From Candidatus Aminicenantes bacterium (lineage in GTDB: Bacteria; Acidobacteriota; Aminicenantia; Aminicenantales; Aminicenantaceae), in assembly GCA_016927475.1 (NCBI GenBank), contig JAFGMO010000012.1:21287-85286 (forward strand): a DNA stretch of 64,000 nucleotides. The letters run 5' to 3'. Every line of letters starts with the position of its first letter. Positions within the stretch are counted from its first letter, which is position 1. Below are positions 16,825 to 64,000 of the stretch, one piece after another. Both the position numbers and the translations under genes were made by a program. A model generated the notes under the pieces. It worked only from the letters and a program-made list of their open reading frames with translations, was not told the origin of the DNA and did no database searches.

Positions 16825-16853
16825 TTGACAAACGCATCAATATTCCTTAAAAT
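16825..16853 (+). promoter_or_regulatory. sigma70-like promoter TTGACA-N17-TAAAAT for the PadR-permease operon, overlapped by AGGAA/TTCCT repeats
   Basis: TTGACA at 16825-30, 17-nt spacer, TAAAAT at 16848-53. ATATTCCTTAA-type motifs flank it. Confidence 0.4.
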
Positions 16854-16878
16854 TAAAGGAAAACTATAAGGATTAAAA

Positions 16879-17199
16879 ATGAAGCTTTTAACACGAGCGG
16901 AAGAAATGATCCTTCTGTCCATTCTTAGGCTCAAAGACAACGCCTACTGTGTGCCCATTTTTGACGAGATCCAGCGGATCACACAAAAAAAATGGACCAT
17001 GGGAGGGATTTACATTCCGCTTTACAGGCTTGAAAAGAATGGGTATGTGGGATCCCATCTTGGTCAACCCACTGCAGAGCGGGGGGGGAAAAGTAAAAGA
17101 TTTTACTGGCTGACCCCTAAGGGTTTGAAATCCCTCGAGGCGATCAAAAAGATCGAAAAAGCTATGTGGGAAGGACTTACCCAAGTCGGCACTGATTGA
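16879..17199 (+). CDS. PadR family transcriptional regulator
   Basis: Winged-helix PadR signature (LSILRLKDNAYCVPI...GGIYIPLYRLEKNGYV...). Confidence 0.9.
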   Translation: MKLLTRAEEMILLSILRLKDNAYCVPIFDEIQRITQKKWTMGGIYIPLYRLEKNGYVGSHLGQPTAERGGKSKRFYWLTPKGLKSLEAIKKIEKAMWEGLTQVGTD

Positions 17200-19841
17200 A
17201 TACGATGACATCAAAGAAAAACAGTCCTCCCAGACTCGGCCAGTGGCTGCTGAAGAATGCGTTGCCGGATTATGTCAGCAAGGTGGGAACGGGAGACTAT
17301 GAAGAAATCTATAAGAGGATTGTCGAGCTTGAAGGCCGGAGCAAGGCGCGAAGATGGTACTGGTCTCAGGTCATAAAGGCTTTGCCTCTGTTTTTATGGG
17401 ATTATCTTTATTGGAGTATGGAAATGTTTAAAAATTATCTAAAAATCGCCTTTAGAAACTTGAAAAGACAAAAAGGATTTTCTCTCATCAATATTTCCGG
17501 ACTGGCCATCGGCATGGCCTGTTGTCTTTTAATCCTGCTGTACGTGTCAGATGAGTTAAGCTTTGACCGGTTCCACAAAAACGGAGATAGAATTTACAGG
17601 ATCCTGTCATACAGCACCATTGGGGGAACCACCCGAAATTTTGCCATATCACCCTCAGCCCTAGCTCCGGCCGCAGCCGAATCCATCCCCGAGATCGAAC
17701 TCTATTGCAGGCTTTATGAGTTCGGAAATATGAGGCTTCAGCATGGTGAAAACATTCATGAATTTCCGACATGGCATAGTGCGGACGAGGACTTTTTTTC
17801 CATCTTTTCCCATGACTTCATAGAGGGAAATCCCGATACCGCCCTTCGGCAGCCCTACTCTTTGGTCTTGCCCAAAAGCACAGCCATAAGGATTTTTGGA
17901 CGAACGGATGTACTCGGTGAAACACTGCACACACCGAACGAAAATCCCCTTGAGGTGAAAATAACAGGCGTGATAGAAGACATCCCGAAAAATTCACACT
18001 ATCATTTTGATATGCTCCTGTCCACACTCACTTTTAGGGCTAGGCAAAACGAGCAGCAGCAGGACCGGCAGCGGAGGCAATCCTTCTTGGATGAACCCTA
18101 TTATTTTCAAGCCTATTCCTACCTTTTTCTCCAGGAAAATGCCGACCCTGAAGACGTGCAGGCCAAAATAATGGCCGTTGTCGAAGCACGGTGGGGAGAT
18201 CTTTTACGACAGAGAGGAGTCACCCGAGAGTACCCACTCCAGACCCTTAAAGACATACATCTGCGGTCCAACTATGAAGCTGAACTAGGTCATCCGGGAA
18301 ACATTAACTATGTCTATCTCTTTTCCGCTGTCGCCCTTCTTGTACTGATCATCGCCTGTTTCAATTTCATCAATCTTTCGACAGCCAAATCCGCTAAACG
18401 GGCCAAAGAAGTCGGACTGCGAAAGGTATTCGGCGCCTATAAAAAGCAGCTTATCAAACAATTTATGGGAGAATCTATCCTTCTTTCCATGTTCGGTCTC
18501 GTTTTGGGTTTGATCCTTGTTCTGCTTGCTCTTCCCATTTTCAACAATCTTACCAATAAACAGTTCAACACTTACCAGCTTTTAAGTTTGACAGTAATAT
18601 TAGGCTTGTTCACTATCATCATGGTTACAGGATTTATAGCCGGAAGCTTTCCCGCTTTTGTTTTATCCTCTTTCCACCCCGTGGAGACGGTTCAAGGAAA
18701 ATTTGCTTCCGGGAAAAAAAGCAGTTTGCTGCGCCGTTTTCTGGTAGTGATCCAGTTTGCCATTTCCATCTTCATGATCATCGGAATTTTGGTCATCCTT
18801 AAACAGCTCGATTTTATGAAAAATAAAGATTTCGGCTTCAATAAAAATCATATGGTCGTTATTATAAACAGAGGCCGTGTCACCGATGCCTTCAAAAACC
18901 AGCTCCTGCAGAATCCTGAAGTTGTATCCGTCTCCTTCTCTCACTCTGTCCCTGGTCAATACTTGGGGGATGACACCTTTCTTCCCGAAGGCAGAAGCTC
19001 AGAGGAAACCGTTAGGGCGTCGGCCTTTTTTATCGGATATGACTTCATCGAGACCTACGAAATGGAGATCGTCTGGGGAAGAGATTTCTCCAAAAAATTT
19101 CCCTCAGATACCCGGGAGGGAATCATCATCAATCAAAAAATGGCTGCGGACATAGGCTGGGGAGAGAGCGATATCGGAAAAGAACTGGTGAATGTATCCA
19201 GCAATAATGCCCGGAAAAAAGTCATCGGGATTGTAAAAAATTTCCACCATAAAAGCCTTAAAATGGAGATCAATCCTACGGTGTTAAACCTTATTCCCCA
19301 AGGCGGCAGATACACTACAGTGCGGATCAAGCCCGAGGATGTCGCTTCCACCTTGGGTTTTCTCGAGGGCCTCTATCAAAAGACCTTTCCCGGACAGGAA
19401 TTCGAATATTATTTTATCGACGATGATTTCAGGAGCAAGTATCCCGAAGAAGAAAAAGTCCAAAAAATCTACTTTTACTTCGGCTTTTTGGCCATTTTTG
19501 TTGCCTTTCTCGGTCTTTATGCACTGGCCTCATATACCATCGAACAGAAAACAAAGGAAGTCGGGATCCGGAAGGTCCTGGGCGCCAAAACACAGGGGCT
19601 TGTCTTTTCACTCTCGAAGGAATTTCTCAAATGGGTGCTTTTAGCCAACATTCTGGCCTGGCCTACGGCTTTTATCATCATGAATAATTGGCTCAAGAAT
19701 TTCGCCTATAGAATAGATATCGCCTGGTGGATGTTTATCGCCTCCGGAATCCTTACAATGACCATTGCCGTTATGACAATAAGTTATCAGGCTTTCAAAT
19801 CGGCCATCTCTGATCCAGTCGAGGCTTTGAGATACGAATAA
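17196..19841 (+). CDS. two-domain FtsX/MacB-like ABC transporter permease with N-terminal permease-prefix domain
   Basis: Prefix motif (...WYWSQVIKALPLFLWDY...MFKNYLKIAFRNLKRQKGFS) followed by two FtsX repeats (TM, about 200-aa periplasmic domain, 3 TM each). It overlaps the PadR stop (TTG 17196 or ATG 17205), consistent with translational coupling. Confidence 0.85.
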   Translation: MNTMTSKKNSPPRLGQWLLKNALPDYVSKVGTGDYEEIYKRIVELEGRSKARRWYWSQVIKALPLFLWDYLYWSMEMFKNYLKIAFRNLKRQKGFSLINISGLAIGMACCLLILLYVSDELSFDRFHKNGDRIYRILSYSTIGGTTRNFAISPSALAPAAAESIPEIELYCRLYEFGNMRLQHGENIHEFPTWHSADEDFFSIFSHDFIEGNPDTALRQPYSLVLPKSTAIRIFGRTDVLGETLHTPNENPLEVKITGVIEDIPKNSHYHFDMLLSTLTFRARQNEQQQDRQRRQSFLDEPYYFQAYSYLFLQENADPEDVQAKIMAVVEARWGDLLRQRGVTREYPLQTLKDIHLRSNYEAELGHPGNINYVYLFSAVALLVLIIACFNFINLSTAKSAKRAKEVGLRKVFGAYKKQLIKQFMGESILLSMFGLVLGLILVLLALPIFNNLTNKQFNTYQLLSLTVILGLFTIIMVTGFIAGSFPAFVLSSFHPVETVQGKFASGKKSSLLRRFLVVIQFAISIFMIIGILVILKQLDFMKNKDFGFNKNHMVVIINRGRVTDAFKNQLLQNPEVVSVSFSHSVPGQYLGDDTFLPEGRSSEETVRASAFFIGYDFIETYEMEIVWGRDFSKKFPSDTREGIIINQKMAADIGWGESDIGKELVNVSSNNARKKVIGIVKNFHHKSLKMEINPTVLNLIPQGGRYTTVRIKPEDVASTLGFLEGLYQKTFPGQEFEYYFIDDDFRSKYPEEEKVQKIYFYFGFLAIFVAFLGLYALASYTIEQKTKEVGIRKVLGAKTQGLVFSLSKEFLKWVLLANILAWPTAFIIMNNWLKNFAYRIDIAWWMFIASGILTMTIAVMTISYQAFKSAISDPVEALRYE

Positions 19842-19844
19842 ACG

Positions 19845-19900: not shown

Positions 19901-19973
19901 TAGAAGTTGAGGTTGGTTGCGGACAGCGGTAACCATTGTTTTTCAAGAGGGAAAAACGTAAAATCCTTGTCAA

Positions 19974-20675
19974 ATGACGATGTGGATCATCCTGTCAGGA
20001 ATTATTGCTCCCGCCCTTTTCTGGATGGGTTATTTTTACTATAAAGACCGGTTCCGGCCGGAACCCCTGATCAAAATCGGAACTTGCTATGTGATGGGAA
20101 TTTTGAGCGGATTCCTGTGCCTTAAGTTTTTTCATTTTTTAAATATGTTCGGCCTGCCGGATGACCTCAGTATCTACATGGAAACCAACCGATGGCGGTA
20201 CCTGCTTTATAATGTGTTGCTGGTGGGGGGAGTGGAGGAGCTTTTTAAATTTTTTCCTTTCTTAGCGGCTTTAAGATTCAAAGCATTTGATGAAAAAGTC
20301 GATGGATTCGTTTATGCCTCAATGATTGCATTGGGTTTTGCCAGCTATGAAAACAGCCTGTATCTTGTCTATATGTCCGGACCGGAAATGTTGGGACGGG
20401 CTTTTGCTTCCCCCCTTTCTCATACGATCTTCGCTTCTATTTGGGGGTATGCCGTCGGGGCCGCAAAAATTCAAAAAAAATCACTGTGGAGAGCAGTGGC
20501 CGTCAGCCTTCCCGCTGCCGCCATTTTTCATGGTGTCTTCAATTTTCTAACAACGTCACCTCTGCTGCGGATCGGGTCGGCGCTGCTCATTCTCGGAGGA
20601 TGGATCTGGCGTATCCGCATTCAGGATAAAAGCTTAAAAGCGGACAAAAAATTATCTTCAGGGAAAAAATTCTAA
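19974..20675 (+). CDS. PrsW-family intramembrane glutamic-type protease
   Basis: Polytopic membrane protein with E-E-x-x-K (GGVEELFKFFPF), FxxxH and HxxxN (IFHGVFN) motifs. Confidence 0.65.
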   Translation: MTMWIILSGIIAPALFWMGYFYYKDRFRPEPLIKIGTCYVMGILSGFLCLKFFHFLNMFGLPDDLSIYMETNRWRYLLYNVLLVGGVEELFKFFPFLAALRFKAFDEKVDGFVYASMIALGFASYENSLYLVYMSGPEMLGRAFASPLSHTIFASIWGYAVGAAKIQKKSLWRAVAVSLPAAAIFHGVFNFLTTSPLLRIGSALLILGGWIWRIRIQDKSLKADKKLSSGKKF

Positions 20676-20747
20676 AAACAATTTTTTTTTATTTTTTTTG
20701 TAACGATTTGTCCTAGAAAACCGTAATAATATATAGAGGAATTTTTG

Positions 20748-21065
20748 ATGAAAGAATTGACCTTATCCCAACTGACCATCCTTCTGGCCATTTTGCGTTT
20801 GAAGGACAATGCCTACGGTGTGACTATCCGGCGGCAGATCCATGAGGTAACGGGAAAAGCCTTTCCTTACGGAACCTTGTACAGCTTTCTGGAGCTTCTC
20901 CATAAAAAAGGTTATGTCGAGAAATTTATCGGGGGGCCGACAAAAAAAAGGGGAGGACGGCGGAAAATTCTTTACAAACCTACCAAAAAAGGTTTGGAAG
21001 CGCTGCAGGCGGCCCAAAAACTTCAGAAAGCCCTGTGGCGGGATATTCCGGAAAAGGTTGTGTGA
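20748..21065 (+). CDS. PadR family transcriptional regulator
   Basis: Paralog of the 16879 gene. ATG 20748 has RBS AGAGGA. Its stop TGA overlaps the ATG of the downstream permease (TGATG). Confidence 0.9.
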   Translation: MKELTLSQLTILLAILRLKDNAYGVTIRRQIHEVTGKAFPYGTLYSFLELLHKKGYVEKFIGGPTKKRGGRRKILYKPTKKGLEALQAAQKLQKALWRDIPEKVV

Positions 21066-23689
21066 TGCGTCCTCCGAAATATGCTGAAAAAATATGTAAT
21101 CGTTTGTCCAGACGCGGGGAAGAATTTTCCCTGGTCGGAGATCTGCAGGAGGAGTTTTGCGATTTGTGCTCTCAGAAGGGCGTCCTTTCCGCAAAAGTGT
21201 GGTACTGGAAGCAGGTTTTTTTATCCCTTCCCGGGTTTGTTTTTAATTCAATATTTTGGAGTTTCATCATGTTTAAAAACTACCTAAAGATTGTCTTGCG
21301 CAATCTCAAAAAAAACAAAATTTATACCGTCATCAACCTGGCCGGATTAGCTGTCGGTATGACCGCTTTTATCCTGATTTTTTTCCATATCCGCTATGAG
21401 CTCAGCTATGACGGCTTTCATGAAAAAGGGGAACGCGTCTACCGGATTATTCGGCAGTATTCACGAAATGTCATAAAAAACACACCGGAAGAGCTTTATA
21501 TCGGGGGAACTCCGGCTCCTCTGGCTCCTTACCTTGTTCAAACATATCCTGAGGTCTTGGCCGGAACACGGGTTGGAGAGGTGAACGGCATTCTTCGTCT
21601 GGAAGATTCAAAATTCAGCCAGAACGGGATTTTTGCCGACTCCAACTTTTTTGATATATTCAGCTTCAAGCTCCTGCAAGGCGACGCTGAAAGGGCTCTC
21701 CAAACCCCCTTTTCCATCATTTTGACCCGGGAACTGGCAAAAAAATGTTTCGGCCGGGAAGATCCCTTGGGTAAAATGATTCATTTTTATAAACAAAAAA
21801 ATGAAAGCCGTTCAGGCCAAAAGAACGAGGATTATGATGTGCAGGTCACGGGAATTCTTGAAGATGTGCCTTCAAACTCCCACCTCCGGTTCGATTACAT
21901 CCTTTCCTTTGCCACCATCACAGCGACACCGGGAAACGCGCAGCTTCTTGAGACGTGGCAAAGGAGCGATTATTACAATTATATCGAGCTCGACCCTCAA
22001 ACCGGGCCCGATGTTTTTAATGAGAAAATCGCCGCTTTGGCCGATCAGCGCAGAGGACAGAAGATCGAAACATATGTCCTTCAATCCCTGAGGGATATTC
22101 ATTTCAAACTCGGTATCTTAGATGAAATGCCTGGGAATATGGTCGGAGACATCAAACAAGTCACTTTTTTTTCTCTTATCGCTTTCGTTATTTTACTTGT
22201 GGCCTGTATCAACTACATGAATCTGGCCACGGCCAGGTTCACCCGGCGCCTCAAGGAAATCGGCGTCAGGAAGGTGATCGGGGCTCACAAATCCCAGCTC
22301 GTGCGCCAGTTTTTGACGGAATCGACCCTGCTCTCCGTTTTTGCGGTTTTTCTAGCTCTTGGAATGGTCGGGCTTCTTCTGCCCGTCTTTTCACGCTTTG
22401 TCGGCCGGGAGATTTCCTTGTCTCTTTTCAACGATCCTCTGATTTTAAGTGTTCTTTTTGGTGTGGTCGTTTTTACGGGACTTATCTCCGGAAGCTATCC
22501 CGCCCTTTTTCTATCTTCCATTCGACCCATATCCATTTTCAGAGGAGGATCCAACCTGCGCCTCAGCGGGGGACGAATGCGAAATATGATGGTTTGTCTC
22601 CAGTTTGCCGTGACCATCCTCCTTATCACCTGCACGGTCGTCATTTCCAGTCAGATACGTCATGTTTTGCATAAAGATGTGGGGTATGACCGTGAGCATG
22701 TGGTCGTTATGCCGCTTCGGGACGAAGAGGCCAGGAACCAAGGATCGATCATTCTGAAAGAACTGCGACGACTTCCGAATGTGCAATATGCAACAAGTTC
22801 GGAATATATCCCCTTGGCCGTCAACAATATTCCGGGCTTTTGGTATGAGGATGAAAGCGGTGATCGGCAGAACATCAACGCGCTTGAGAGCGGCATCAAT
22901 TATGACTTTTTTAAGGTTTTCAAACTCAAACTTTTGGCCGGACGGACGTTTTCTCCCGAATACCAGGATGATGAGAAAGGAACCGTCATTCTCAATGAGA
23001 CCGCAGCCCGAAAAACCGGATGGAAAGAACCCGTCGGAAAAATGGTCCACTGTATGGGTTATCGGCGGATCATAGGCGTTGTCAAAGATTTTCATCATGC
23101 TTCCCTTCATGAGGGTATTCAGCCCATGGTTCTCCACCTGCGGCCCCAGGGATTCGCTTATGTTTGTGTCCGAATCAATCCGGACAACATTCCTCGAACC
23201 ATTTCCCTGCTGAAAAAAAACGTAGAAAAATTCAGCCCGCATTTTGCGTTTGAATATTATTTTCAAGATGATTATTTCAATATGAAATATAGTGCGGACC
23301 AGCGCTTCCGCATCCTTTTCGGTTCTTTTTCTCTTCTGGCTGTTTTCATCGCCTGTATCGGTCTCTTCGGTTTGTCCTCGTTTGTGATGGAACAAAGAAC
23401 AAAAGAAATCGGAATCCGCAAAGTTTTGGGAGCATCTCTTCCCGGACTTATAAGGCTTTTATCCTGGAAATATATCATATTGGTGGTAGCGGCCAATGCC
23501 GTGGCCTGGCCGCTGGCTTATATTATCATGAGCCGCTGGCTGCAAAATTTCGCCTTCAGAATAGATCTTGAAGCCTGGATGTTTCTTTTGGCTTCATTAA
23601 TAACCCTGCTTATCGTAATGTTGACGGTGAGTATCCAATCGTTCAGGGCGGCCCGGACCGATCCCGTTCGTTCCTTACGCTTCGAATGA
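21065..23689 (+). CDS. two-domain FtsX/MacB-like ABC transporter permease with prefix domain
   Basis: Same architecture as 17196; MFKNYLKIVLRNLKKNK motif. Confidence 0.85.
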   Translation: MRPPKYAEKICNRLSRRGEEFSLVGDLQEEFCDLCSQKGVLSAKVWYWKQVFLSLPGFVFNSIFWSFIMFKNYLKIVLRNLKKNKIYTVINLAGLAVGMTAFILIFFHIRYELSYDGFHEKGERVYRIIRQYSRNVIKNTPEELYIGGTPAPLAPYLVQTYPEVLAGTRVGEVNGILRLEDSKFSQNGIFADSNFFDIFSFKLLQGDAERALQTPFSIILTRELAKKCFGREDPLGKMIHFYKQKNESRSGQKNEDYDVQVTGILEDVPSNSHLRFDYILSFATITATPGNAQLLETWQRSDYYNYIELDPQTGPDVFNEKIAALADQRRGQKIETYVLQSLRDIHFKLGILDEMPGNMVGDIKQVTFFSLIAFVILLVACINYMNLATARFTRRLKEIGVRKVIGAHKSQLVRQFLTESTLLSVFAVFLALGMVGLLLPVFSRFVGREISLSLFNDPLILSVLFGVVVFTGLISGSYPALFLSSIRPISIFRGGSNLRLSGGRMRNMMVCLQFAVTILLITCTVVISSQIRHVLHKDVGYDREHVVVMPLRDEEARNQGSIILKELRRLPNVQYATSSEYIPLAVNNIPGFWYEDESGDRQNINALESGINYDFFKVFKLKLLAGRTFSPEYQDDEKGTVILNETAARKTGWKEPVGKMVHCMGYRRIIGVVKDFHHASLHEGIQPMVLHLRPQGFAYVCVRINPDNIPRTISLLKKNVEKFSPHFAFEYYFQDDYFNMKYSADQRFRILFGSFSLLAVFIACIGLFGLSSFVMEQRTKEIGIRKVLGASLPGLIRLLSWKYIILVVAANAVAWPLAYIIMSRWLQNFAFRIDLEAWMFLLASLITLLIVMLTVSIQSFRAARTDPVRSLRFE

Positions 23690-23974: not shown

Positions 23975-26557
23975 TCACTCATACCGGAGCGAGTCAACAG
24001 GATTAGATGTGGCTTCCCTTAGGAATTGAAATATAACTGCAGAAATGGCGACGGCGAAAGCTAAAAATGATGAAAAAACAAAAATCTCCAGCCGCATTCC
24101 AATTTTATAAGCAAAATTCCTCAGCCAACCGGACATCACAAAATATGCAAGGGGCCAAGCGATAACATTGGCTATAAGAACCCACAACATAAACTCTTTC
24201 CCCAAAATCAAAATCATATTTCCAGGCGAAGCCCCAAGAACCTTCCGGATACAGATTTCTTTTTTCCTCTGCTCAATGGCAAAAGAAGTCAATCCTATGA
24301 GTCCTAAACAGGCAATAAAAACAGCGAGGCCGGCAAAAACATTGATGAGTTTTCCCATGCGCATTTCCGGCTTATAGTGTCTTTCATACTGTTCTTCCAT
24401 AAAACGGAAGGCGAACGGAATATGAGGAAAGATATTTTTCCATATTTTATTTATATCTGTGAGAGTCATGGGAATGCTATCCTGATGAATTTTTATCAGC
24501 ACATGATTCCAATAATCTTCAGAGCCGATGCCCATAGCCAAAGGGCCGATACCCGAATGGAGCGAATGAAAATGAAAATCCTTCATCACTCCGATGACCC
24601 GGCCTTCCCGTCCGAAAAATGAAAACTTTGCTCCGACAGGAGACTCGGCTTCCATCATTCCGGCCAATGTTTCATTGATCAGAAATGCCTGCGTGGCATC
24701 GGTAGAATATTTTTTTGAAAACGGCCTTCCCTCTGCCAATTCGATATTTAAGGTGTCAAGAAAGTCATAATCCACCAGGTTTCCGGTAACATGAACAATC
24801 TCTTCCGGGTTCTTTCCCTCCCAATTCACGCTAGATGAACTGGTTTCGAAACTGGTCGGATCGGAGTAAGCAGCCGTAACATTCAAAATCCGGGGGTGTT
24901 TCAAGAGTTCGGTTCTCAGAATATCGTATGATTTTTTCATTTCTTTGCTTAGAGAAATCCCTATGAGATTTTCTCTTTCCCAGCCTATTTTTCTGTTGCG
25001 GACATAATCGAGTTGGCTGTAAACAACAATGGCTCCAATAATCAGAATGACCGATATGGAAAACTGAAGAATAACAAGAATCCGTCTGAATCCTGATTTT
25101 TTCTTCCCTTTTTGTAAAACATTCTTAAAAACATGAACGGGACGAAAAGACGAAAGAAATAGAGCTGGATAACTGCCGGCAACACATGCCGCAAATAAAT
25201 TGATTCCAACCAATCCAATAATGGCCTGCCAGTTGAAAAGAGAACGAATAGTTATCTGCTTTCCTGTAAATTTATTGAATTCGGGCAGAATGAGACAAAT
25301 GATTACCAAGGCCAGACCGAGCGCCAAGAAAGTCACAAACATAGACTCTCCGAGAAATTGAACGATCATATGTCTGCGCGTTGCCCCGAGAGTTTTCCGC
25401 ATCCCGATTTCCTTGGCCCTGTTGAACGATATGGCAGTCGTCAGGTTCATAAAATTGAAACATGCAATCAGCAGAATGAACACTGCAACAATGGAAAAGA
25501 TATAAACATAATCGATGCCTCTTAATCCTGGTGACAGCCGGTAATGCGATCGGAGATGAATATCAGAAATGGGTTCCAACAGAATTTCAGTTTTCGCGCC
25601 AGGCGAATATTGCTGGATGATTTTCTTTATTTTCTGATTGACCTCAAAAAATGAGGCTTTCTCTCCGAGTAAGACGTATGTTCGATAGCTGTTCATCCCC
25701 CAGCTATTGGGTTCATACCAATTCATGTGATTCAAATGGGACCACGGCAAAACGAAATCAAACTGGCGAATATGTGTATTATAAGGAATGTCTTGGAAAA
25801 CTCCCCTGACAGTATATTCGAACCGGCTATCAACCTGGATTATTTTTCCGATAGGATCTTCGTTTCCAAAAAAACTTTCAGCCCGTCTCTCACTGATGAG
25901 AGCAGAGTTCGGCGTATTCAGGGATGCTGCCCCTTCCCCTTTGATAAAGGGAAATGTGAAAAGATCAAAAAAAGAGGGCTCTACCACGATCATATTGGTC
26001 TCATTGAACGATTTATTTCCAGAGCGGAGAGGTACACTTCCCCAATAGCTGAGCCTTGTTGTCTCTACGATCTCAGGAAAATCATTTTTCAGTACCTGTC
26101 CCAGCGGAGGAGGTGTGGCTACAATTTTCCGTATTCCCCTTGATGACGGCAAATTCACAACCACTCTATACAAACGATCACGATTCTCATGAAAACGGTC
26201 ATAGCTATGCTCATCCAAAATCCAGAGCGTTATAAGAAGACAGCAGATCAATCCGACAGCTAATCCTGTGATGTTGATAAAAGAATAAGTTTTGTGCCTT
26301 CTCATGTTTCTCCAGGTGATCAAGGCATAGTTCTTAAACATCACCAGCTTGAATCGAATGGCATCCGCAACAAAAGGAGGGACGGATTTAAGTATATTGA
26401 GTGCTAACCAAAAATTCGCGAAAGGTCTTCCCCGGTTAGCGGCGATCTGCGCATATTCCTCTTCGAAATCACCGATGTTTGTATCATCGGCATATCCGGG
26501 TAAAACCCGGCGAAGCATCCAAACCAGGAATTTGGCAGGTTTATTTTTACGACTCAT
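23975..26557 (-). CDS. two-domain FtsX/MacB-like ABC transporter permease with prefix domain
   Basis: MFKNYALITWRNMRRHKTYS motif and duplicated FtsX domains. ATG 26557 overlaps the PadR 3' end by 11 nt. Confidence 0.85.
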   Translation of the reverse strand: MSRKNKPAKFLVWMLRRVLPGYADDTNIGDFEEEYAQIAANRGRPFANFWLALNILKSVPPFVADAIRFKLVMFKNYALITWRNMRRHKTYSFINITGLAVGLICCLLITLWILDEHSYDRFHENRDRLYRVVVNLPSSRGIRKIVATPPPLGQVLKNDFPEIVETTRLSYWGSVPLRSGNKSFNETNMIVVEPSFFDLFTFPFIKGEGAASLNTPNSALISERRAESFFGNEDPIGKIIQVDSRFEYTVRGVFQDIPYNTHIRQFDFVLPWSHLNHMNWYEPNSWGMNSYRTYVLLGEKASFFEVNQKIKKIIQQYSPGAKTEILLEPISDIHLRSHYRLSPGLRGIDYVYIFSIVAVFILLIACFNFMNLTTAISFNRAKEIGMRKTLGATRRHMIVQFLGESMFVTFLALGLALVIICLILPEFNKFTGKQITIRSLFNWQAIIGLVGINLFAACVAGSYPALFLSSFRPVHVFKNVLQKGKKKSGFRRILVILQFSISVILIIGAIVVYSQLDYVRNRKIGWERENLIGISLSKEMKKSYDILRTELLKHPRILNVTAAYSDPTSFETSSSSVNWEGKNPEEIVHVTGNLVDYDFLDTLNIELAEGRPFSKKYSTDATQAFLINETLAGMMEAESPVGAKFSFFGREGRVIGVMKDFHFHSLHSGIGPLAMGIGSEDYWNHVLIKIHQDSIPMTLTDINKIWKNIFPHIPFAFRFMEEQYERHYKPEMRMGKLINVFAGLAVFIACLGLIGLTSFAIEQRKKEICIRKVLGASPGNMILILGKEFMLWVLIANVIAWPLAYFVMSGWLRNFAYKIGMRLEIFVFSSFLAFAVAISAVIFQFLREATSNPVDSLRYE

Positions 26558-26888
26558 TTGAAGCCTTCTTTTCTGAGGAAAATTCGGGAACTCCTGTCCA
26601 CATAGAATCATGAAGCTTTCTGACTTCGTCCAAGGCTTTTAATCCGGGAGGCGTCATTTTGTATATTCGCCTGCTTTTTCCTCCCCGCACGGGAATGGGA
26701 TCAACCAAATAAGATTTGACCAATCCTTTCTTTTCCAGCCGATGCAGGGGCACATAAATGGCACCGAATGACCATGTCTTGCCGGTAAGCTTGGAGACAT
26801 GTTTTCTGATCGAGACACAATAGGCATCTTCTTGCAGCTCCCAGACAGCATGCAGCAAAAGCTCTTCAGGCCGCGATAGAAATTTCAT
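26547..26888 (-). CDS. PadR family transcriptional regulator
   Basis: PadR signature (LHAVWELQEDAYCVSI...GAIYVPLHRLEKKGLV). Confidence 0.9.
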   Translation of the reverse strand: MKFLSRPEELLLHAVWELQEDAYCVSIRKHVSKLTGKTWSFGAIYVPLHRLEKKGLVKSYLVDPIPVRGGKSRRIYKMTPPGLKALDEVRKLHDSMWTGVPEFSSEKKASNES

Positions 26889-28891: not shown

Positions 28892-29144
28892 GCCTATCTC
28901 CTTTTGATCGGATATAATTTCCTGAATTAACCAGATATTTATCCCTGAAAGAATAACAGTATCAGATTCAGATCACCCTCGTCAATCTAGAGTCATAATA
29001 TACCTTTTTTTAGAGAATTTTTTGAATGACGATGCTGTGGTTGTATAATTTGAAATGTTTCTTATATAATTTAGGAAAGCATATGAAAATAGATGGTTCG
29101 TTGTAATTTAATAAATAGCCATTAAAGATAATAGAGGAAGTAGG

Positions 29145-31394: not shown

Positions 31395-31401
31395 AAATCC
31401 A

Positions 31402-32868
31402 TCAATGATTCGTCAATTTCTCAAAGAGCTCATCAAGGGGAATGCCGGCAAATCCTGAGGAATAATCAGACATACCATAGGCAATGACTAATTCATTGTT
31501 ATGAATGATGGAACCGCAGGAATACACCACATTGGGAACATAACCTTCACGTTCCTCTTCGTTGGGAACAAGAAGTGGTTCTGCCAGGCGGCCGATAACT
31601 TTTGTAGGGTCATCTTTGTCAAGAAGTAGAGCACCTAGACTGTAGCTTCTCATCGGACCGACTCCATGGGTAATGAGAAGCCATCCTTTTTCGGTTTCAA
31701 GAGGGGATCCTGAATTACCGATTTTAATGAGTTCCCATGTTTGAAGGGGTTCCTGGATTTTCTTTGCACTTCTCCAGTAATTTATATTTTCTGAATACAT
31801 GATATAGTTGTTAATGCCATCCGATCGTGCAGTCATAACGTATTTTCCATTTATCTTTCGCGGGAAGAGAGACATCCCTTTATTCTGAGCATATTCTCCA
31901 TTCATCGGCATCACTTCAAAATGATAGAAATCATATGTTTTCATCAGTTTTGGCAGAATGGTATAACCATCATAGGCCGTATAGGTCGCGTAATAAGTGA
32001 CCTTTCCATTATCATCAGTAAATTTTACAAATCTGGCGTCCTCAATACCGTTCACTTCTGTGTATGAGACAGGAAAAAGAACTCTTTCTGAAATTGCAGT
32101 ATCCAGTGAAAATTTAACCTCATAATGAGACTTGGCCAGCCACATAATCGATTCTATGACCTTTGTTTTACTGGGAGTGACTCTAACCTGTTTTAAAGTT
32201 TCCTCTATACTTTGTTTCAATTCGCCGTAAAGAAATGTTTTTCCTAGTTTATCCATCACTATATTCACGACATCTTTTTCAATATGCATTTCAGAAAGCT
32301 TTTTCAGAAACGTTATTTTCTTGTATACATGACGCTTGATGATTTCTGGTACATCTACTAATCTTCCCTCAGTCTGAAATTTCAGGCTGTTATCTTTATC
32401 AACGATTCCCTGGCGGAAAACAATAGAAGAAATATGATGCTCGCCTGTAGCGCGGAAACTGACGATGATTCTTTTCTGGCCTTCTTCCAAATTGCTTTGA
32501 TCAGGTGCTTCAACAATAGATGGATTAAAAAACGCAGTTGATTCAATGGAGTATTCTGTTGTGAAATAAGATCCAATCAGTAATTTTTTTTTCAAACTAA
32601 GTGGCTTATTATCATTATTTATATTACCCAATATTTCTTGTAGAGAATTAAAACTATTCTCAAATATTTTTGAAATGTTTCGATGTCTTTTGGAAAAATT
32701 GCTCAATATTTGGTTGAGTATATGACTTACTTCCTCTTCAGAACGTTTTAAAATGCTTGTAATAATGACTCTTGCTCTATCCTCTTTTATTGGCATATAG
32801 AATTTCGCAATAACTCTTTTTGGGTTAGGGTAAAAACGAGTTTCTTTTCTATTCACGGTTATAGCCAT
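31402..32868 (-). CDS. GH130-family glycoside hydrolase/phosphorylase-like protein (beta-mannoside phosphorylase family)
   Basis: GIEDARFVKF (GH130 EDPR-like block), GALLLDKDDPTKV and VVYSCGSIIHNNELVIAYGMSDYSSGFA C-terminal blocks typical of GH130, plus an N-terminal ~190-aa extension. Low GC. Confidence 0.65.
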   Translation of the reverse strand: MAITVNRKETRFYPNPKRVIAKFYMPIKEDRARVIITSILKRSEEEVSHILNQILSNFSKRHRNISKIFENSFNSLQEILGNINNDNKPLSLKKKLLIGSYFTTEYSIESTAFFNPSIVEAPDQSNLEEGQKRIIVSFRATGEHHISSIVFRQGIVDKDNSLKFQTEGRLVDVPEIIKRHVYKKITFLKKLSEMHIEKDVVNIVMDKLGKTFLYGELKQSIEETLKQVRVTPSKTKVIESIMWLAKSHYEVKFSLDTAISERVLFPVSYTEVNGIEDARFVKFTDDNGKVTYYATYTAYDGYTILPKLMKTYDFYHFEVMPMNGEYAQNKGMSLFPRKINGKYVMTARSDGINNYIMYSENINYWRSAKKIQEPLQTWELIKIGNSGSPLETEKGWLLITHGVGPMRSYSLGALLLDKDDPTKVIGRLAEPLLVPNEEEREGYVPNVVYSCGSIIHNNELVIAYGMSDYSSGFAGIPLDELFEKLTNH

Positions 32869-33097
32869 TTTGTGCTTTCCTTCTTCTTCTTCAAAGCCTC
32901 AATCTAGTGAAAAGACTCTTAAATTAAAATTGTTTTTAATTAAGAGATTATTAAAGAAAAAACAAAGTTTTGTCAATACTCAAAGAAAGGCATGATTTGG
33001 GGTGGGGGATCACGGCCATCAAGATAGATTTTGCTGGGATGTATTTATTGTTTTTTTCCCGGCGAAGGCTTTTCAAGCGAGGTGCGCAGGACTGTAA

Positions 33098-34267: not shown

Positions 34268-34268
34268 T

Positions 34269-47496: not shown

Positions 47497-47531
47497 ATAA
47501 TTGTCATGAATGAATCGAATTATGAGGTTTG

Positions 47532-54801: not shown

Positions 54802-54804
54802 TAT

Positions 54805-54870: not shown

Positions 54871-55161
54871 GGAATCAGACGGCTCAACAATCTCCTGTGC
54901 TCCGTGCCAGACAGCGACAATCCAAATCGTCTTCTTCTCAACGCGATAAAAGAAACGATATGGATTGATCATAATTTCGCGATGCGCCAATTCCGGGAAC
55001 TCAGGAATCACTCGACCAGACTCCGGAAATCTTTCTAGACGTCGGAGAACCCGTTCGGACCTCTCACGAAAACGCTGTGCTGCGGAAGGCTTATCTCTAC
55101 GGATGTATACAAGTGCCTCAAGAAATTGCAGACGAGCCGAGGGCGTGAACCGAACCCTCAC
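54865..55161 (-). CDS. parE: type II toxin, RelE/ParE family (cassette R4)
   Basis: RelE/ParE fold signature (PSARLQFLEALVYIRRD...RFFYRVEKKTIWIVAVWHGAQ). Confidence 0.85.
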   Translation of the reverse strand: MRVRFTPSARLQFLEALVYIRRDKPSAAQRFRERSERVLRRLERFPESGRVIPEFPELAHREIMINPYRFFYRVEKKTIWIVAVWHGAQEIVEPSDSA

Positions 55162-55439
55162 GCCTCACCCTCCCGAAGAAGGGCATCCGCCTCTCGAAGC
55201 ACGCTATCTAGCGAATATCCTTTGCCCTTTGCGATCTCCCTTTCCCCCAACGCGAGCAGGCGCAGTAACTCCCGCTCATGCTGTGAACGTTCGTAGGCTT
55301 CGAGGTTCAACAGAACAGCAGTCGCCCGCCCTCTCTGGGTTATAACAAGGGGTTCCTCGGATTTTTGAAGCTCTTTCAGTACAGACGCTGCGTCCTGCCG
55401 CAGGTCTGTAATAGGAATTATTTTTGGAACTTTCGCCAT
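55158..55439 (-). CDS. phd: type II antitoxin, Phd/YefM family
   Basis: Phd/YefM N-terminal motif (IPITDLRQDAASVLKELQKSEEPLVITQRGRATAVLL). 4-nt overlap with parE. Confidence 0.85.
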   Translation of the reverse strand: MAKVPKIIPITDLRQDAASVLKELQKSEEPLVITQRGRATAVLLNLEAYERSQHERELLRLLALGEREIAKGKGYSLDSVLREADALLREGEA

Positions 55440-59010: not shown

Positions 59011-59753
59011 ATGAGCAACCGAAAAACAAAAGATTCCCCGCAACTCTTGCGGAAAATGAACCTTCTGGATTCGACTTTTTTGGTTATTGGGGCCATCGTT
59101 GGTTCGGGAATTTTTATGACGACCGGTTTTATCGCCGAGTATCTCCCATCACCTCTCATGATCCTGATTGTGTGGCTGCTGGGCGGTTTTTCTGGGTCAT
59201 TGAGTGCGGAGGAGTTGCTGCTCTTGCCGTCGGGTTTGCGGAATACGTTGGATGCTTTGTCCCGGTCCTATCGACTAAGACCTACTTTTTGAAATTAAGT
59301 CTTCTAGGCTTTGATTATTCCTTATCTTTTGGTCAGCTGGTCGCGGTTGCCTCCATATTATTTCTATCCGCCATAAATTATATTGGCATCAAGAGCGGCA
59401 TCGTTGTTCAGAATTTCTTTACATTTTTACGGATTGCAGCTGTGGTTGTTTTGATTGTTCTAGATCTGACGGTAGGATCAAAGGCAGGTGTAGTTTCTTT
59501 TGAGGGATTTTTGACAGGCGACAAATCCATCAGTATCAAACTTTTCGGACTGGCATTTATAGCCGTTCTCTGGACTTATGATGGCTGGTATGGAATAAAC
59601 TGCGCCGCCGAAGAGATAAAAAATCCGGGTAAAAACATTCCCCGGGGTTTGATCCTGGGAACTCTGAGTGTGATGCTAATCTATTTTCTGGTGAATATTG
59701 TCTATGTGTCCGCCCTGCCAGTCGAACGGATGAAAGGAGTCATGGGAGTTTGA
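59011..59753 (+). pseudogene. APC-family amino-acid permease pseudogene (frameshift near 59180-59290 and C-terminal truncation)
   Basis: Frame 1 gives LLDSTFLVIGAIVGSGIFMTTG...WLLGGFSGSLSAEEL. It continues in frame 2 (59172-59753: ...AINYIGIKSG...WTYDGWYGINCAAEEIKNPGKNIPRGLILGT...) and ends after about 6 TM helices. Confidence 0.6.
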
Positions 59754-60000: not shown

Positions 60001-62376
60001 ATGCTGATTCATGATGTTCGAATGACTTTTCGTCAATTCAAGAAATATCCGGGGTATTCTTTCCTTAATATTTTCGGTTTGGCCGTCGGAATGGCCTGTT
60101 TTTTCCTCATATTCCTCTGGGTAAAGAATGAGCTCGACTATGACCGCTTTTTTGACCATGCCGAGCGGATCTACCGGGTGACCTCGGATGTCAGCCTGAG
60201 ATCGGGCCAAAAAAAATTCTACGCCTATTCCACTCCCGCTTTGGCTGAAGCGTTAAAAAAAGAATATCCTGAAGTTATGGCCGCGGCGCGCTTTCGGCCT
60301 GCCGGGAGGGTGCTTCTTCAGAAAGATGATCAGAGCTTTTTTGAATCCGGGTTTATATTCGCCGACTCCGGATTCCTGGAAGTTTTTTCCGCTCCGCTCC
60401 TTCAAGGAAACCGGGAGGAGGTATTGAAGGAACCGCATTCGCTGCTGCTTTCCCAGGAAACGGCTCAAAAATATTTTGGGGATGAAAACCCGGTGGGAAA
60501 AACTTTGCTGGTAGATCATGAACATGAATACAGGGTGACCGGAGTTTTGGGAACTCTCCCGGCCAATACTCATTTCCGGCTGGATTTTCTCGCTTATCCC
60601 GGAGAGGACGACTTGTTCCATCCACCTAACTGGATGTCGCTATCGGTGTTTGTTTATGTCCTTCTCGACCAAAATGTTCCTGTTTTGGAGTTTGAAGCTA
60701 AAATCCAGGATCTAGCGGTAAAATATATCGGTCCAAGAGGAAAAGAGATCTTTACCTACAGGCTCCAGTCCTTGACTTCCATCCATCTTCACTCCGACCT
60801 TGAGGGGGAGTTTGCCCCGGTTATGAACGTTTTGCAGGTTTATCTTTTTATGGCTGTCGCAGTTTTGATTTTATGTGTCGCCTGTATCAATTTTGTCAAT
60901 CTTTCCACGGCCAGGGCCGGAAAAAGATCCCGTGAAGTCGGAGTACGCAAAGTTTTAGGCGCGCACCGGCTCCTGTTGGGACGGCAATTTTTCAGCGAGT
61001 CGATGTTTTCCGCTTTGGCGGCCTTTATTCTAAGTCTCGGTTTGGTGCATCTTTTGCTGCCCTTGTTCAACTCGCTCAGCGAGGGGCGGCTTAAAATGGT
61101 TTATGGTGAATATTTTGTTCTATGTGCCGGCATCGTTCTTCTGGTCGGAATATTGTCCGGCAGCTACCCGGCGGTTTTGCTTTCTTCCTTTAAGCCTTCT
61201 TCCGCGCTGAGGGAAGAAGCGCATAAAGGAAAGTCCGGGCTGCTTGTCCGCAGGGCTTTGATTGTTTTTCAATTTGCGGTGACCGTGTTTCTGCTTTTTT
61301 CCACAGGAGTCGTTTATAAACAAATGAAGTTCATGCGCAGCCGGAACCTCGGCTTCGACCAGGAACACATTGTTTCCGTCCGTATGAGAGGTGAAAATGT
61401 AGTGGGGGATTATGAAACGGTTAAAAATGAACTGCTGCGCCATCCCGATATTTTAAAAGCCTCGGCAGCGTGGTCTGTTCCGGGATTTTCCATTGCCCAG
61501 AGGGCATATGTGCCTGAAGGTTTTGAGGATAGAGCCATGATGGTTTTGACCCTCTATGTCGATCATGATTTTGTTTCGACCCTGGGATTGTCTTTAAAGG
61601 AAGGGCGTGACTTTTCCCGTAATATCGCCTCCGACACCCTGACGGCTTATATCATCAATGAAGCCGCTCAGAAAAAGTTTGGCTGGCAGGAACCGATCGG
61701 TAAAAAATTAACCTGCCGTGGTCGTGATGAAGATGAAAAAACAGCCTTCGGAAAGGTTATAGGTGTGGTTAAAGATTTCCATTTTCGTTCCCTGCACCAG
61801 TCGATCGAGCCGGTATTGCTGCGGATCAGGCCTGACCGTTTTTTGCTTATGAATATGAAACTGAGAGGCGAAAATGTATCACGGACAATGCGATTTATCG
61901 AAGAGACTTTTTCCCGCCTGCAGCCGGAATATCCCTTTGAATACTGGTTTCTGGATGAGCGCCTCGATAATCTTTACCGGAATGAAGAACGGCTGGCCGG
62001 CATCTTCTCCGCTTTTTCCTTGATTGCCGTTTTTATAGCCTGTCTGGGATTATTCGGTTTGGCCGCTTATCTTGCCGAACAAAAGACCAAAGAAATAGGC
62101 ATTCGAAAAGTCTTAGGAGCGGGAACCGGCGGTCTGGTCTGGCTGATCAGCCGGGATTTTGTCAAATGGGTCGGAATTTCCAGTTTGTTCGCCTGGCCTT
62201 TCGCCTTCATGGCTATGCGAAAATGGCTCCAGCATTTTTCTTACCGAACGGAAATAGGGATTTTGGTCGCGGCCTTATCCGGATTAACGGCCGTGCTGAT
62301 CGCTTTTTTCACCGTGAGCTTTCAGGCAGTCAAAGCGGCCAGGACGAATGTGGTTAGGTCAATTCGCCGTGAATAA
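60001..62376 (+). CDS. two-domain FtsX/MacB-like ABC transporter permease (no prefix domain, no PadR partner)
   Basis: Starts directly at TM1 (YSFLNIFGLAVGMACFFLIFLWV), with duplicated FtsX domains. Confidence 0.85.
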   Translation: MLIHDVRMTFRQFKKYPGYSFLNIFGLAVGMACFFLIFLWVKNELDYDRFFDHAERIYRVTSDVSLRSGQKKFYAYSTPALAEALKKEYPEVMAAARFRPAGRVLLQKDDQSFFESGFIFADSGFLEVFSAPLLQGNREEVLKEPHSLLLSQETAQKYFGDENPVGKTLLVDHEHEYRVTGVLGTLPANTHFRLDFLAYPGEDDLFHPPNWMSLSVFVYVLLDQNVPVLEFEAKIQDLAVKYIGPRGKEIFTYRLQSLTSIHLHSDLEGEFAPVMNVLQVYLFMAVAVLILCVACINFVNLSTARAGKRSREVGVRKVLGAHRLLLGRQFFSESMFSALAAFILSLGLVHLLLPLFNSLSEGRLKMVYGEYFVLCAGIVLLVGILSGSYPAVLLSSFKPSSALREEAHKGKSGLLVRRALIVFQFAVTVFLLFSTGVVYKQMKFMRSRNLGFDQEHIVSVRMRGENVVGDYETVKNELLRHPDILKASAAWSVPGFSIAQRAYVPEGFEDRAMMVLTLYVDHDFVSTLGLSLKEGRDFSRNIASDTLTAYIINEAAQKKFGWQEPIGKKLTCRGRDEDEKTAFGKVIGVVKDFHFRSLHQSIEPVLLRIRPDRFLLMNMKLRGENVSRTMRFIEETFSRLQPEYPFEYWFLDERLDNLYRNEERLAGIFSAFSLIAVFIACLGLFGLAAYLAEQKTKEIGIRKVLGAGTGGLVWLISRDFVKWVGISSLFAWPFAFMAMRKWLQHFSYRTEIGILVAALSGLTAVLIAFFTVSFQAVKAARTNVVRSIRRE

Positions 62377-62446: not shown

Positions 62447-63529
62447 TTATTTGATAGCACAGCTTGTGCCGCAGGTTCTGTTTATTTTTTTTCCGTAGGT
62501 TTTTTCGATGTACTGCTGGTGGTATTCTTCGGCACGGTAAAAGGCCGAAGCGGCGACGACCTGGGTGACGACGGGTTTTTTGGTACGGCCGGATTTTTCA
62601 AGCTCGGCGATTTTCTTTTCCGCGGCCTGTTTTTGCTCTTCGTTATGGTAAAAAATGGCGGAGCGGTACTGGTCGCCCACATCCGGTCCCTGCCGGTTGA
62701 GCTGGGTGGGGTCGTGGAGGTTGAAAAAAACATCCAGAAGCTCTTCATAGCTGATTTGTGAAGCATCATAATTGAGCCGGATCGCCTCGGCATGTCCCGT
62801 GTTTTTTGTGCATACCTGCCTGTAGGTCGGGTTTTTTGTTTTTCCGCCGGTATATCCCACTTCCGTGGCCAGCACGCCTTCGACTTGGCGCAGCTTGTGT
62901 TCGACGCCCCAAAAACAGCCCGCGGCGAAAACGGCCGTTTTGACGTCCGGTTTTTTATTCTCAGCTTGAATCTTTTTGTTTTGCGAAGTGATGACTTCCT
63001 TTTCATCGTTTTCGAACGGTTTGAAATCGAGGCTGACCGAGTTGATGCAGTAATGTTTGAATGTCGGGGCGGGGCCGTCGTCAAAAACATGTCCCAAATG
63101 GCCTCCGCAGACGGCACAGCGGACTTCGATCCGTTTCATGCCCAGCTTATAATCATCAGAATATTCGAGATATTCTTCCTTTACGGGGGCCGTAAAGCTT
63201 GGCCATCCTGTGCCGTGGTCGTATTTTGTTTCGGAGCTGAAGAGGGAGGTGCCGCAGCCGGCGCATTGATAAACTCCTTCTTCATAGTGGTCATTGTATT
63301 TACCGGTAAAAGCCCTCTCCGTTCCGCTCTTACGCAGCACCCGGTATTGTTCGGGGGTAAGGATTTTTTTCCATTCTTTATCCGTTTTGTTCACTTTTTG
63401 AACCATGGATTTCTCTCCTTTCTGTTCGTTCTCTAAGTTCAGCAGGGAAAGTTTGGAGGTGGCGTTAAGAACAATATATCCCGTAACCAAAAAAACCACA
63501 ATTATTATCAAAAGAGGCAAATTCCTCAT
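62447..63529 (-). CDS. msrBA: membrane-anchored bifunctional methionine sulfoxide reductase MsrB-MsrA
   Basis: N-terminal signal anchor, an MsrB domain (CxxC pairs [20 protein letters not shown]...RYCINS) and then an MsrA domain (GCFWG motif [13 protein letters not shown]). RBS AGGAGA. Confidence 0.85.
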
Positions 63530-63749
63530 AGCTTCTCCTTTAATTTATAATTCCTATATATATTATAGTGATTATAACCGGAAAAGTAAAGCTTGTGTTA
63601 CAAAATGGTACACTTTCTGTTTCAAAATGAACAGTTCCTTCACAAAAGGCGGCACCACTTTTTTATAACATCTGGAATAATATTGGCATACAATTTGCTG
63701 TTGTAATATGTATATTCTTATTCATATATGGATTTATGAGGAAAAAGCT

Positions 63750-64000
63750 ATGCTGAAAAATGTTCTTCTTCTGTTTTTTCGAAACATCAAAAAACACAAG
63801 GGATATTCCTTTATCAACATCTTCGGTTTTGCGGTTGGTATCGCCTGCTGTATGTTTTTGGTTCTTTATATCAAATCCGAGCTCAGTTTTGACCGCTATC
63901 ATGAAAACGCCGACCGTATCTTTCGAATGGGCGTTAGAGGAGGATCGGGTGATACACAGTTTGAGTGGGGAGAGTCCAACGCCGTAATCGCCCGGGTGCT
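63750..64000 (+). CDS. FtsX/MacB-like ABC transporter permease, 5' partial (runs off the window)
   Basis: MLKNVLLLFFRNIKKHKGYSFINIFGFAVGIACCMFLVLYIKSELSFDRYHENADRIFRM matches the N-terminus of the 60001 paralog. RBS GAGGA upstream of ATG 63750. Confidence 0.7.
   Translation, partial: MLKNVLLLFFRNIKKHKGYSFINIFGFAVGIACCMFLVLYIKSELSFDRYHENADRIFRMGVRGGSGDTQFEWGESNAVIARV

Follow-up and report, generated by a model that had tools for sequence, protein, structure and literature searches.

The window considered here, 64,000 nt of DNA from an Aminicenantes metagenome-assembled genome, encodes five paralogous FtsX/MacB-like permeases, three of which are directly preceded by genes for PadR-family regulators (Table 1). 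Searches of the source organism's own DNA were made within this window. The Aminicenantota are a candidate phylum in the NCBI taxonomy, and GTDB places them within the Acidobacteriota. An earlier note on this DNA had listed five two-domain permeases of this type and described their arrangement with the PadR genes; the pattern is real and was correctly described. Each of the four complete permeases contains two MacB_PCD and two FtsX domains, as defined by Pfam. The fifth, a partial copy that runs into the window edge, gives a weak MacB_PCD match (expectation value, E, 7e-4; 20.3 bits vs a cutoff of 27 bits), aligns with the N-termini of the others, and is 46% identical to permease 1 over the aligned stretch. 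These five are the only open reading frames (ORFs) of the window to match the permeases. A database protein identical to permease 1 (878 aa) has the ATG at 17205 as its start. Permeases 2, 3 and 4 share 35-37% identity with permease 1 over their full length. Pairs among the four complete copies are on average 44-48% identical over the membrane parts, against 30-31% over the periplasmic domains.

NCBIfam model TIGR03434 (ADOP family duplicated permease; ADOP is short for 'acidobacterial duplicated orphan permease') is matched by the four complete permeases along practically the entire length of its profile. Their scores, 269.5, 314.8, 276.3 and 308.6 bits for permeases 1 to 4, are set against a curated cutoff of 622.3, and the proteins are thus full-length homologues of ADOP that lie outside the curated TIGR03434 family. 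The five window genes are members of a broad ADOP-like family. The second-best NCBIfam model is DarB (NF038008), a permease for darobactin export, at 119.5-157.4 bits vs a cutoff of 700, with an alignment that spans profile positions 2-771 of 777.

The earlier note took this to be a lineage-specific family, a claim that does not hold. Scanning species-representative genomes yielded 592 confirmed relatives, and 79 loci were kept; loci are designated below by L numbers. The closest locus in that scan is 44% identical. The loci belong to Aminicenantes/Acidobacteriota, KSB1, Latescibacterota, Calditrichia, Ignavibacteriales, Neomarinimicrobiota, Krumholzibacteriota, Rhodothermales and many Bacteroidota, including Larkinella, Dyadobacter, Chitinophaga, Parapedobacter and Flavobacteriaceae. 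When the 75-aa N-terminal prefix of the window permeases was used as the sole query, it matched representatives of 700 clusters drawn at 50% identity. Among the 150 matches listed, the prefix is, with few exceptions, no more than about 30 residues away from the N-terminus; full-length proteins among them measure 850-903 aa. Both ADOP and the prefix (perm_prefix_2) are existing NCBIfam entries, and the arrangement of a PadR gene, an N-terminal domain and an FtsX-MacB-PCD protein has already been published (PMC11237479). Because the relatives span many phyla and the prefix matches 700 clusters, the ADOP-like family is widespread rather than restricted to one lineage; it is conserved, and the pattern seen in the window is typical for these phyla and already catalogued. 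Few paralogous families in the Acidobacteriota and in many Bacteroidota are as large as that of the ADOP-like permeases. To illustrate, a 42-kb cluster of Psychroflexus torquis carries ten highly translated ADOP paralogues (PMC3914696), and 28-33 ADOP copies have been reported from Dyadobacter genomes (PMC11573002).

Table 1. Positions of permeases, regulators and associated features in the window, and of adaptor-ATPase gene groups in related Aminicenantes loci
Feature	Sequence	Positions	Strand	Description
Palindrome TTCCTTTAATTTTTAGGAA	window	16799-16817	+	candidate PadR operator, cassette 1 promoter region
Cassette 1 promoter	window	16825-16853	+	TTGACA (16825-16830), 17-nt spacer, TAAAAT (16848-16853); promoter scan 11/12
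Palindrome TTCCTTAAAATTAAAGGAA	window	16843-16861	+	candidate PadR operator, cassette 1 promoter region
PadR1	window	16879-17199	+	106 aa, winged-helix repressor; PF03551, 30.8 bits
Permease 1	window	17205-19841	+	878 aa from ATG 17205 (alternative start TTG 17196); ADOP E 5.6e-80
Coupling-helix motif, permease 1, half 1	window	18408-18437	+	EVGLRKVFGA
Coupling-helix motif, permease 1, half 2	window	19557-19586	+	EVGIRKVLGA
Terminator-like hairpin and T-run	window	19914-19935	+	between permease 1 and the PrsW gene; consensus scan only
PrsW-family intramembrane protease	window	19974-20675	+	between cassettes 1 and 2; PF13367, 97.4 bits
PadR2	window	20745-21065	+	106 aa; PF03551, 37.1 bits
Permease 2	window	21065-23689	+	874 aa, prefix-bearing; Pfam; ADOP E 1.1e-93
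Permease 3	window	23975-26557	-	860 aa, prefix-bearing; Pfam; ADOP E 4.9e-82
PadR3	window	26547-26888	-	113 aa; PF03551, 39.6 bits
Cassette 3 promoter-like sequence	window	26947-26919	-	TTGACA-17-TATATT; promoter scan 11/12
Permease 4	window	60001-62376	+	791 aa, no prefix, no PadR; Pfam; ADOP E 8.1e-92 (profile positions 1-803)
Permease 5	window	63750-64000	+	5' fragment ending at the window edge, 83 aa, no prefix
Adaptor-ATPase group	L087	2740-10690		sigma-54 two-component pair, adaptor, ATPase, two duplicated permeases
Adaptor-ATPase group	L088	5581-10690		sigma-54 two-component pair, adaptor, ATPase; no permease within 10 kb
Adaptor-ATPase group	L089	2621-10690		sensor kinase, sigma-54 regulator, beta-lactamase-family gene, adaptor, ATPase; no permease within 10 kb
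Adaptor-ATPase group	L090			adaptor, ATPase, one single-unit FtsX permease

PadR genes and the permease prefix

All three PadR proteins pass the 27-bit cutoff of PF03551. None reaches that of the acidobacterial model TIGR03433 (padR_acidobact), with scores of 34.3, 25.2 and 25.7 bits for PadR1 to PadR3 against a cutoff of 101.8. Each gene abuts or overlaps the permease gene that follows it, with which it is translationally coupled. The TGA stop codon of PadR1 (17197-17199) either overlaps the TTG at 17196 by 4 nt or leaves a gap of 5 nt to the ATG at 17205, depending on which start is used. The TGA of PadR2 (21063-21065) overlaps the ATG of permease 2 (21065-21067) in the sequence TGATG at 21063-21067, and PadR3 and permease 3 overlap by 11 nt at 26547-26557, both exactly as the earlier note had given them. 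In related loci, the distance from the PadR stop codon to the start of the prefix is mostly between -17 and +12 nt.

Permeases 1, 2 and 3 share an N-terminal prefix of about 75 aa (residues 1-75 in permease 1, encoded at ~17205-17429), which corresponds to NCBIfam NF038404 (perm_prefix_2, 'permease prefix domain 2'). The cutoff of that model is 35 bits. By itself the prefix of permease 1 reaches 37.0 bits, and within the whole protein 32.3 bits; the prefixes of permeases 2 and 3 fall below it, at 24.7 and 16.8 bits. A jackhmmer search seeded with permease 1 recovers both, at E 8.5e-23 for permease 2 and 2e-17 for permease 3. The prefix motif given in the earlier note is real: it aligns over the three window copies and recurs in 69 ORFs of the related loci.

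ORFs were called in the 79 loci and the window, and permeases, prefixes, PadR proteins and ATPases were identified with jackhmmer. This census comprises 208 complete duplicated permeases, 196 of which have sufficient upstream DNA to be judged. Prefix and PadR occur together, with PadR directly upstream, in 47 of the 196; 14 carry prefix_2 with no PadR detected, three have PadR without prefix_2, and the remaining 132 have neither. The coupling to PadR is systematic (Fisher's exact p = 6e-29 for prefix_2 vs PadR). Some of the 14 prefix-only permeases are second or third genes of tandem runs, such as those in L047, L008, L017 and L038. The three exceptions of the opposite kind possess another N-terminal extension of about 85 aa, which in two of them is perm_prefix_1 above its cutoff. 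Counted in this way, an N-terminal extension is present in all 50 PadR-preceded permeases, and PadR precedes none of the ~130 permeases that lack an extension.

Annotation may obscure this pattern. In L082 (9743-12418), the protein P0010, annotated at 805 aa, is a start-codon miscall with the prefix in frame upstream. Because such miscalls hide the prefix, prefix-bearing permeases are under-reported when annotated lengths are used. Apparent natural fusions of PadR to permease in L047 were rejected, the long N-terminal extensions there being spurious run-ons of the reading frame in GC-rich DNA.

Orthologues of permease 1 in L082 and L084 (82-83% identity) have kept the PadR-permease pair amid neighbours that are otherwise unrelated, and they lack a PrsW gene, a second cassette and an ATPase within 10 kb. 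Because only the pair is kept, the unit of inheritance is a two-gene PadR-permease cassette. The promoter region of cassette 1 contains two 19-bp palindromes of the form TTCCTT-N7-AAGGAA, which flank or overlap the promoter. The pattern TTCCTT-N5-9-AAGGAA occurs once in the 64 kb vs 0.1 occurrences expected. Both palindromes are conserved in the orthologous promoters of L084 and L082, where the flanking bases have diverged. They are plausible PadR operators, which would imply autorepression by PadR. The corresponding regions of cassettes 2 and 3 have only AT-rich, low-complexity palindromes, none of them convincing as a PadR operator.

Transporter type and the location of the ATPase

An AlphaFold2 model of permease 1, built from 36 sequences (mean predicted local distance difference test score 83.2, predicted template modelling score 0.71), has eight transmembrane (TM) helices and two periplasmic alpha/beta domains, with a short cytoplasmic linker (residues 489-503) between the halves. 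The layout is a direct tandem of two 4-TM units with a periplasmic domain in each. At the N-terminus, the model has helices at residues 10-19, 22-43 and 45-88, the second being 29-43 in a model of the prefix alone; the third is drawn continuous with the elbow helix and TM1. The best Foldseek match in the PDB is E. coli YbbAP (9ge6_A, E 9.5e-18, 905 aligned columns), followed by MacB, the S. pneumoniae MacB-like transporter, LolCDE, BceAB and HrtBA, all of them ATP-driven ABC (ATP-binding cassette) systems of Type VII. Each of the permeases is an ABC permease of Type VII (MacB/FtsX-type) in which two 4-TM units are joined in one chain.

In a Type VII unit the periplasmic domain lies between TM1 and TM2, and a coupling helix lies between TM2 and TM3 (PMC5985334). 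This major coupling helix docks onto the ATPase throughout the superfamily (PMC5985334; PMC12646458). At the position of this helix, each of the four complete window permeases keeps the motif R..E[IV]GxRKxxGA in its first half and in its second. A census by regular expression found two such motifs in 112 of 128 permeases without the prefix, in 49 of 64 with it, and in 7 of 16 that are adjacent to an ATPase.

The earlier note had stated that the window has neither an adjacent ATPase nor an adaptor, and three kinds of search agree. Pfam analysis of all large ORFs in the 64 kb identified no ABC ATPase and no HlyD-type adaptor. With a MacB/LolD-type consensus as phmmer query, none of the window's ORFs of 50 aa or more matched, vs 22 matches in related loci, which served as the positive control. 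A tblastn search with ATPases and adaptors of the family against the six frames of the window had a best E of 2.2.

The partners are found near relatives. An ABC_tran ATPase of ~220-260 aa lies within 1 kb and on the same strand beside 17 of the 208 duplicated permeases. Sixteen of these 17 permeases lack the prefix, and most are in tandem arrays. The typical array consists of two to six tandem prefix-less permeases with one ATPase at the end, as in L073 (five permeases, then the ATPase), L032, L051, L062 and L035, and several permease-ATPase arrays adjoin HlyD-family adaptors. In L079 (12830-16698), PadR and a prefix-bearing permease are followed by a 244-aa ABC_tran gene on the same strand; this sole prefix-bearing cassette of its kind is possibly an intermediate form. 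The ATPase of the Aminicenantes array L051 is of a strongly conserved group, with relatives in more than 120 clusters at 79-100% identity, whereas non-orthologous permease matches in a comparable search are 48-60% identical to permease 1 and the other window copies 35-37%. Among the best 120 relatives of the L051 ATPase, none comes from the source contig or from a complete Aminicenantes genome.

Adaptor-ATPase gene pairs with an ATPase of this group were inspected in four Aminicenantes contexts (Table 1), two of which have no permease within 10 kb. In L087, L088 and L089, the pair adjoins genes for a histidine kinase and a sigma-54-dependent response regulator. Conversely, two permease loci of a complete 4.43-Mb Aminicenantes genome lack an ATPase within 10 kb, so the lineage possesses permeases without engines as well as engines without permeases. 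Of the earlier suggestions, an ATPase that lies elsewhere in the genome or is shared has the strongest backing from the comparative data on related genomes, namely the single ATPase per tandem array, with or without an HlyD adaptor, and the permease-less adaptor-ATPase pairs of Aminicenantes. The premise that went with it, a requirement of MacB-type permeases for a MacA-like adaptor, is put too broadly. LolCDE, FtsEX and BceAB function without one. A topology figure lists FtsEX, LolCDE and BceAB as MacB-family members, and HrtAB and YbbP are treated as homologues independent of tripartite efflux pumps (PMC5985334).

A proposed mechanism and its rivals

The reading we favour, with moderate confidence, is that the permeases are parts of ATP-driven pumps served by a shared ATPase in trans, and that PadR and the prefix autoregulate the cassettes. 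The permeases would form the membrane part of Type VII ABC efflux or extraction pumps. A conserved ATPase, probably with an HlyD-type adaptor, would be encoded elsewhere and would power many permease paralogues, with the divergent periplasmic domains setting substrate specificity. PadR would repress its own promoter through the palindromes that overlap it, and the cytoplasmic three-helix prefix would report to PadR whether the permease has met its substrate or is transporting, such that a cassette would be induced by its own substrate. More tentatively, the system as a whole may be a hub-and-spoke form of Type VII ABC transport, in which one highly conserved adaptor-ATPase engine, in places encoded apart from any permease, serves dozens of scattered double permeases that are interchangeable and substrate-specific, a subset of them fitted with PadR-prefix switches that report transporter activity. 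A shared adaptor-ATPase module would explain the annotation puzzle of permeases 'without' ATPases, and loss of one shared ATPase would abolish many transport functions. For the window itself, the result is mostly a clarification, in that the pattern is genuine, typical of the lineage and already catalogued.

Several observations weigh against the favoured reading. Only one of the 64 prefix-bearing permeases, that of L079, is adjacent to an ATPase. The complete Aminicenantes genome has no ATPase within 10 kb of two permease loci, and these engine-less loci are compatible with a shared ATPase and equally with a function independent of ATP. Retention of the coupling-helix motifs could have a structural cause. 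For the source organism, where the window alone was searched, the trans-acting ATPase is inferred from relatives. Contact between PadR and the prefix is putative. The prefix has no profile match to DUF1700, DUF1129 or DUF1048, gives only noise against PDB sequences, with no fold similarity to HAAS/DUF1700 detected, and has no detectable similarity to perm_prefix_1 (hhalign probability 0.2%). The literature found on ADOP, on the permease prefix domain, and on PadR with FtsX in Acidobacteria consists of genome descriptions, with no experimental functional study among them.

Three rival explanations are less well supported than the one we favour. PadR may sense an inducer directly, the prefix serving instead in membrane insertion, oligomerisation or recruitment of the ATPase. 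Small-molecule-binding PadR repressors of efflux genes are well known, LmrR being a ligand-binding regulator of this family, and it also speaks for this view that PadR-prefix contact is putative. However, the extension is present at every one of the 50 PadR-preceded permeases and PadR at none of the ~130 without an extension, and PadR is accompanied by no fewer than two kinds of prefix that are unrelated to each other (prefix_1 and prefix_2). Because two unrelated types do so, the extension is hard to explain unless it is there for PadR, and we regard direct sensing as unlikely. Alternatively, the prefix-bearing permeases could be pure membrane sensors that act as PadR anti-repressors, with no transport and no need of an ATPase. 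The scarcity of ATPases beside the prefix-bearing forms would fit, and the HAAS-PadR dyad has been proposed as an alternative to two-component systems (PMC11237479). Nevertheless, the conserved unit consists of PadR and the permease, which would leave a sensor with only itself to regulate unless PadR has distant targets. Moreover, 49 of the 64 prefix forms keep both coupling-helix motifs, and in the model both periplasmic domains and all eight TM helices are intact; a purely sensory role seems distinctly unlikely.

The remaining alternative is that the permeases work independently of ATP, as extractors that are passive or driven by ion gradients, or as scaffolds for periplasmic enzymes, in which case the orphan state would itself be functional. 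It draws on the lack of an ATPase in the 64 kb and around the two loci of the complete genome, and the very name of the family records the missing partners. Against it, the structural matches to complete transporters above E 1e-5 are all ATP-driven, arrays in relatives carry an ATPase and adaptor, permease-less adaptor-ATPase modules exist, and the coupling-helix motifs are conserved. We consider this explanation very improbable.

As to what the pumps would carry, the proposed role in envelope stress or antimicrobial-peptide export is a guess. Hints to the substrate are weak, and consist of DarB as the nearest named relative and the lanthipeptide-like neighbours of L087. The flanks of L087 (1327-1527, 15626-17002 and 19961-20690) encode a 66-aa peptide with a weak lanthipeptide-leader match, a LanC-like protein, an Rce1-like protease and an S8 peptidase. 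These neighbours hint at a function of some arrays in the export of modified peptides or in resistance to them.

Neighbouring genes and known systems

A PrsW-like protease had been placed between two of the PadR operons, an assignment that PF13367 confirms. A terminator-like hairpin precedes its gene, which suggests a separate transcription unit. As a component of the system PrsW was rejected: among the 79 related loci no homologue was found, the gene is absent beside the orthologous cassettes, and the terminator-like site sets it apart from permease 1; the neighbour is incidental. Directly upstream of cassette 1 (15187-16782, +) is a gene for a beta-lactamase-family serine hydrolase. Another such hydrolase gene lies directly upstream of the adaptor-ATPase pair in L089 (7060-8544), and none occurs beside the orthologous cassettes in L082 and L084, so the placement in the window and L089 may be coincidence. 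Directly upstream of permease 4, a 193-aa ORF (59172-59753, +) matches positions 85-252 of a 427-position amino-acid permease profile and is likely the remnant of an amino-acid permease gene.

Elsewhere in the window, a 2158-aa STAND NTPase (47529-54005, +) matches Avs3a of PADLOC at E 1e-202 and has weak NACHT/AAA_16 matches in Pfam. Upstream of it is a 200-aa DUF4145 protein (46809-47411) with a weak PD-T7-4 match, and a PhdYeFM antitoxin gene is present at 55158-55439 (-). Together these three genes look like a small defence island. The region ~29000-40000, with a GC content of 0.35-0.41 vs 0.44-0.56 elsewhere in the window, encodes glycosyltransferases, a GH130 protein, a PIG-L deacetylase and a PMT_2-like membrane protein, and this low-GC cluster may have been acquired horizontally. 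A 1021-aa protein (9244-12309, +) combines Reg_prop beta-propeller repeats, a Y_Y_Y domain and a C-terminal GGDEF diguanylate cyclase domain.

Among known systems, ADOP (TIGR03434) is closest in build, having two MacB_PCD and two FtsX domains in a single chain that matches the window permeases end to end. ADOP paralogues, which have been reported in Acidobacteria and Bacteroidota, are also locally clustered, like the five in 64 kb here, and are usually without an adjacent ATPase. The window permeases differ from curated ADOP in score (270-315 bits vs a cutoff of 622), and their relatives are not strictly orphans, 17 of 208 being beside an ATPase.

For the regulatory half, the nearest parallel is the HAAS-PadR dyad. 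According to Ravi et al. (mSystems 2024), the PadR-like winged helix-turn-helix domain always co-occurs with the three-helix HAAS domain, and an FtsX-like TM protein with MacB/PCD is explicitly named as one fusion class (PMC11237479). As in that dyad, the window has a standalone PadR beside a multi-TM protein with an N-terminal three-helix cytoplasmic domain, and gene order, position and helix count all agree; 47 of 61 prefix_2 permeases have PadR directly upstream. In contrast to HAAS, perm_prefix_2 shows no detectable similarity to the DUF1700, DUF1129 and DUF1048 families, and its third helix has a conserved proline without the GxP motif; this residue, P61, is preceded by (S/A)(L/I) rather than Gx, and the AlphaFold2 model has no break in the helix. 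The prefix would thus be an analogue or a very divergent relative of HAAS rather than a demonstrated member.

On the transporter side, YbbAP resembles the window permeases in having a double permease in one chain and its ATPase as a separate protein, although identity to permease 1 is 13-14% and the TM-score 0.42-0.45. YbbP has two extra linking helices (10 TM in all; PMC5985334) vs eight TM helices in the permease 1 model, and ybbA is co-located with ybbP, whereas the window has no ATPase nearby. MacAB-TolC is built on the same 4-TM unit with a periplasmic core domain, and its coupling helix is placed alike; relatives of the window permeases occur in adaptor-ATPase-permease clusters. MacB, however, has a fused ATPase and a homodimeric permease; the window proteins have fused permease units and would use a separate ATPase, and the window contains neither an ATPase nor an adaptor.

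DarB has the same duplicated architecture and aligns over nearly its full length, yet the window permeases score far below its cutoff and are not orthologues, and the window contains no peptide biosynthesis genes. DarB exports its peptide with a separate ATPase and a membrane-fusion protein. BceAB offers a precedent for sensing, its MacB-type fused-half permease being both the transporter and the sensor for its own induction through BceRS. It differs from the PadR cassettes in signalling through a histidine kinase and in having one extracellular domain and 10 TM helices. A single ATPase module that serves many substrate-specific membrane components is found in the group II energy-coupling factor transporters and in the MsiK/MsmK systems. 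We know of no shared ATPase described for Type VII ABC systems. If the hub-and-spoke arrangement is true, it would, among MacB-type transporters, be the first architecture with a shared engine, and PadR with the prefix would be a transporter-coupled alternative to two-component sensing.

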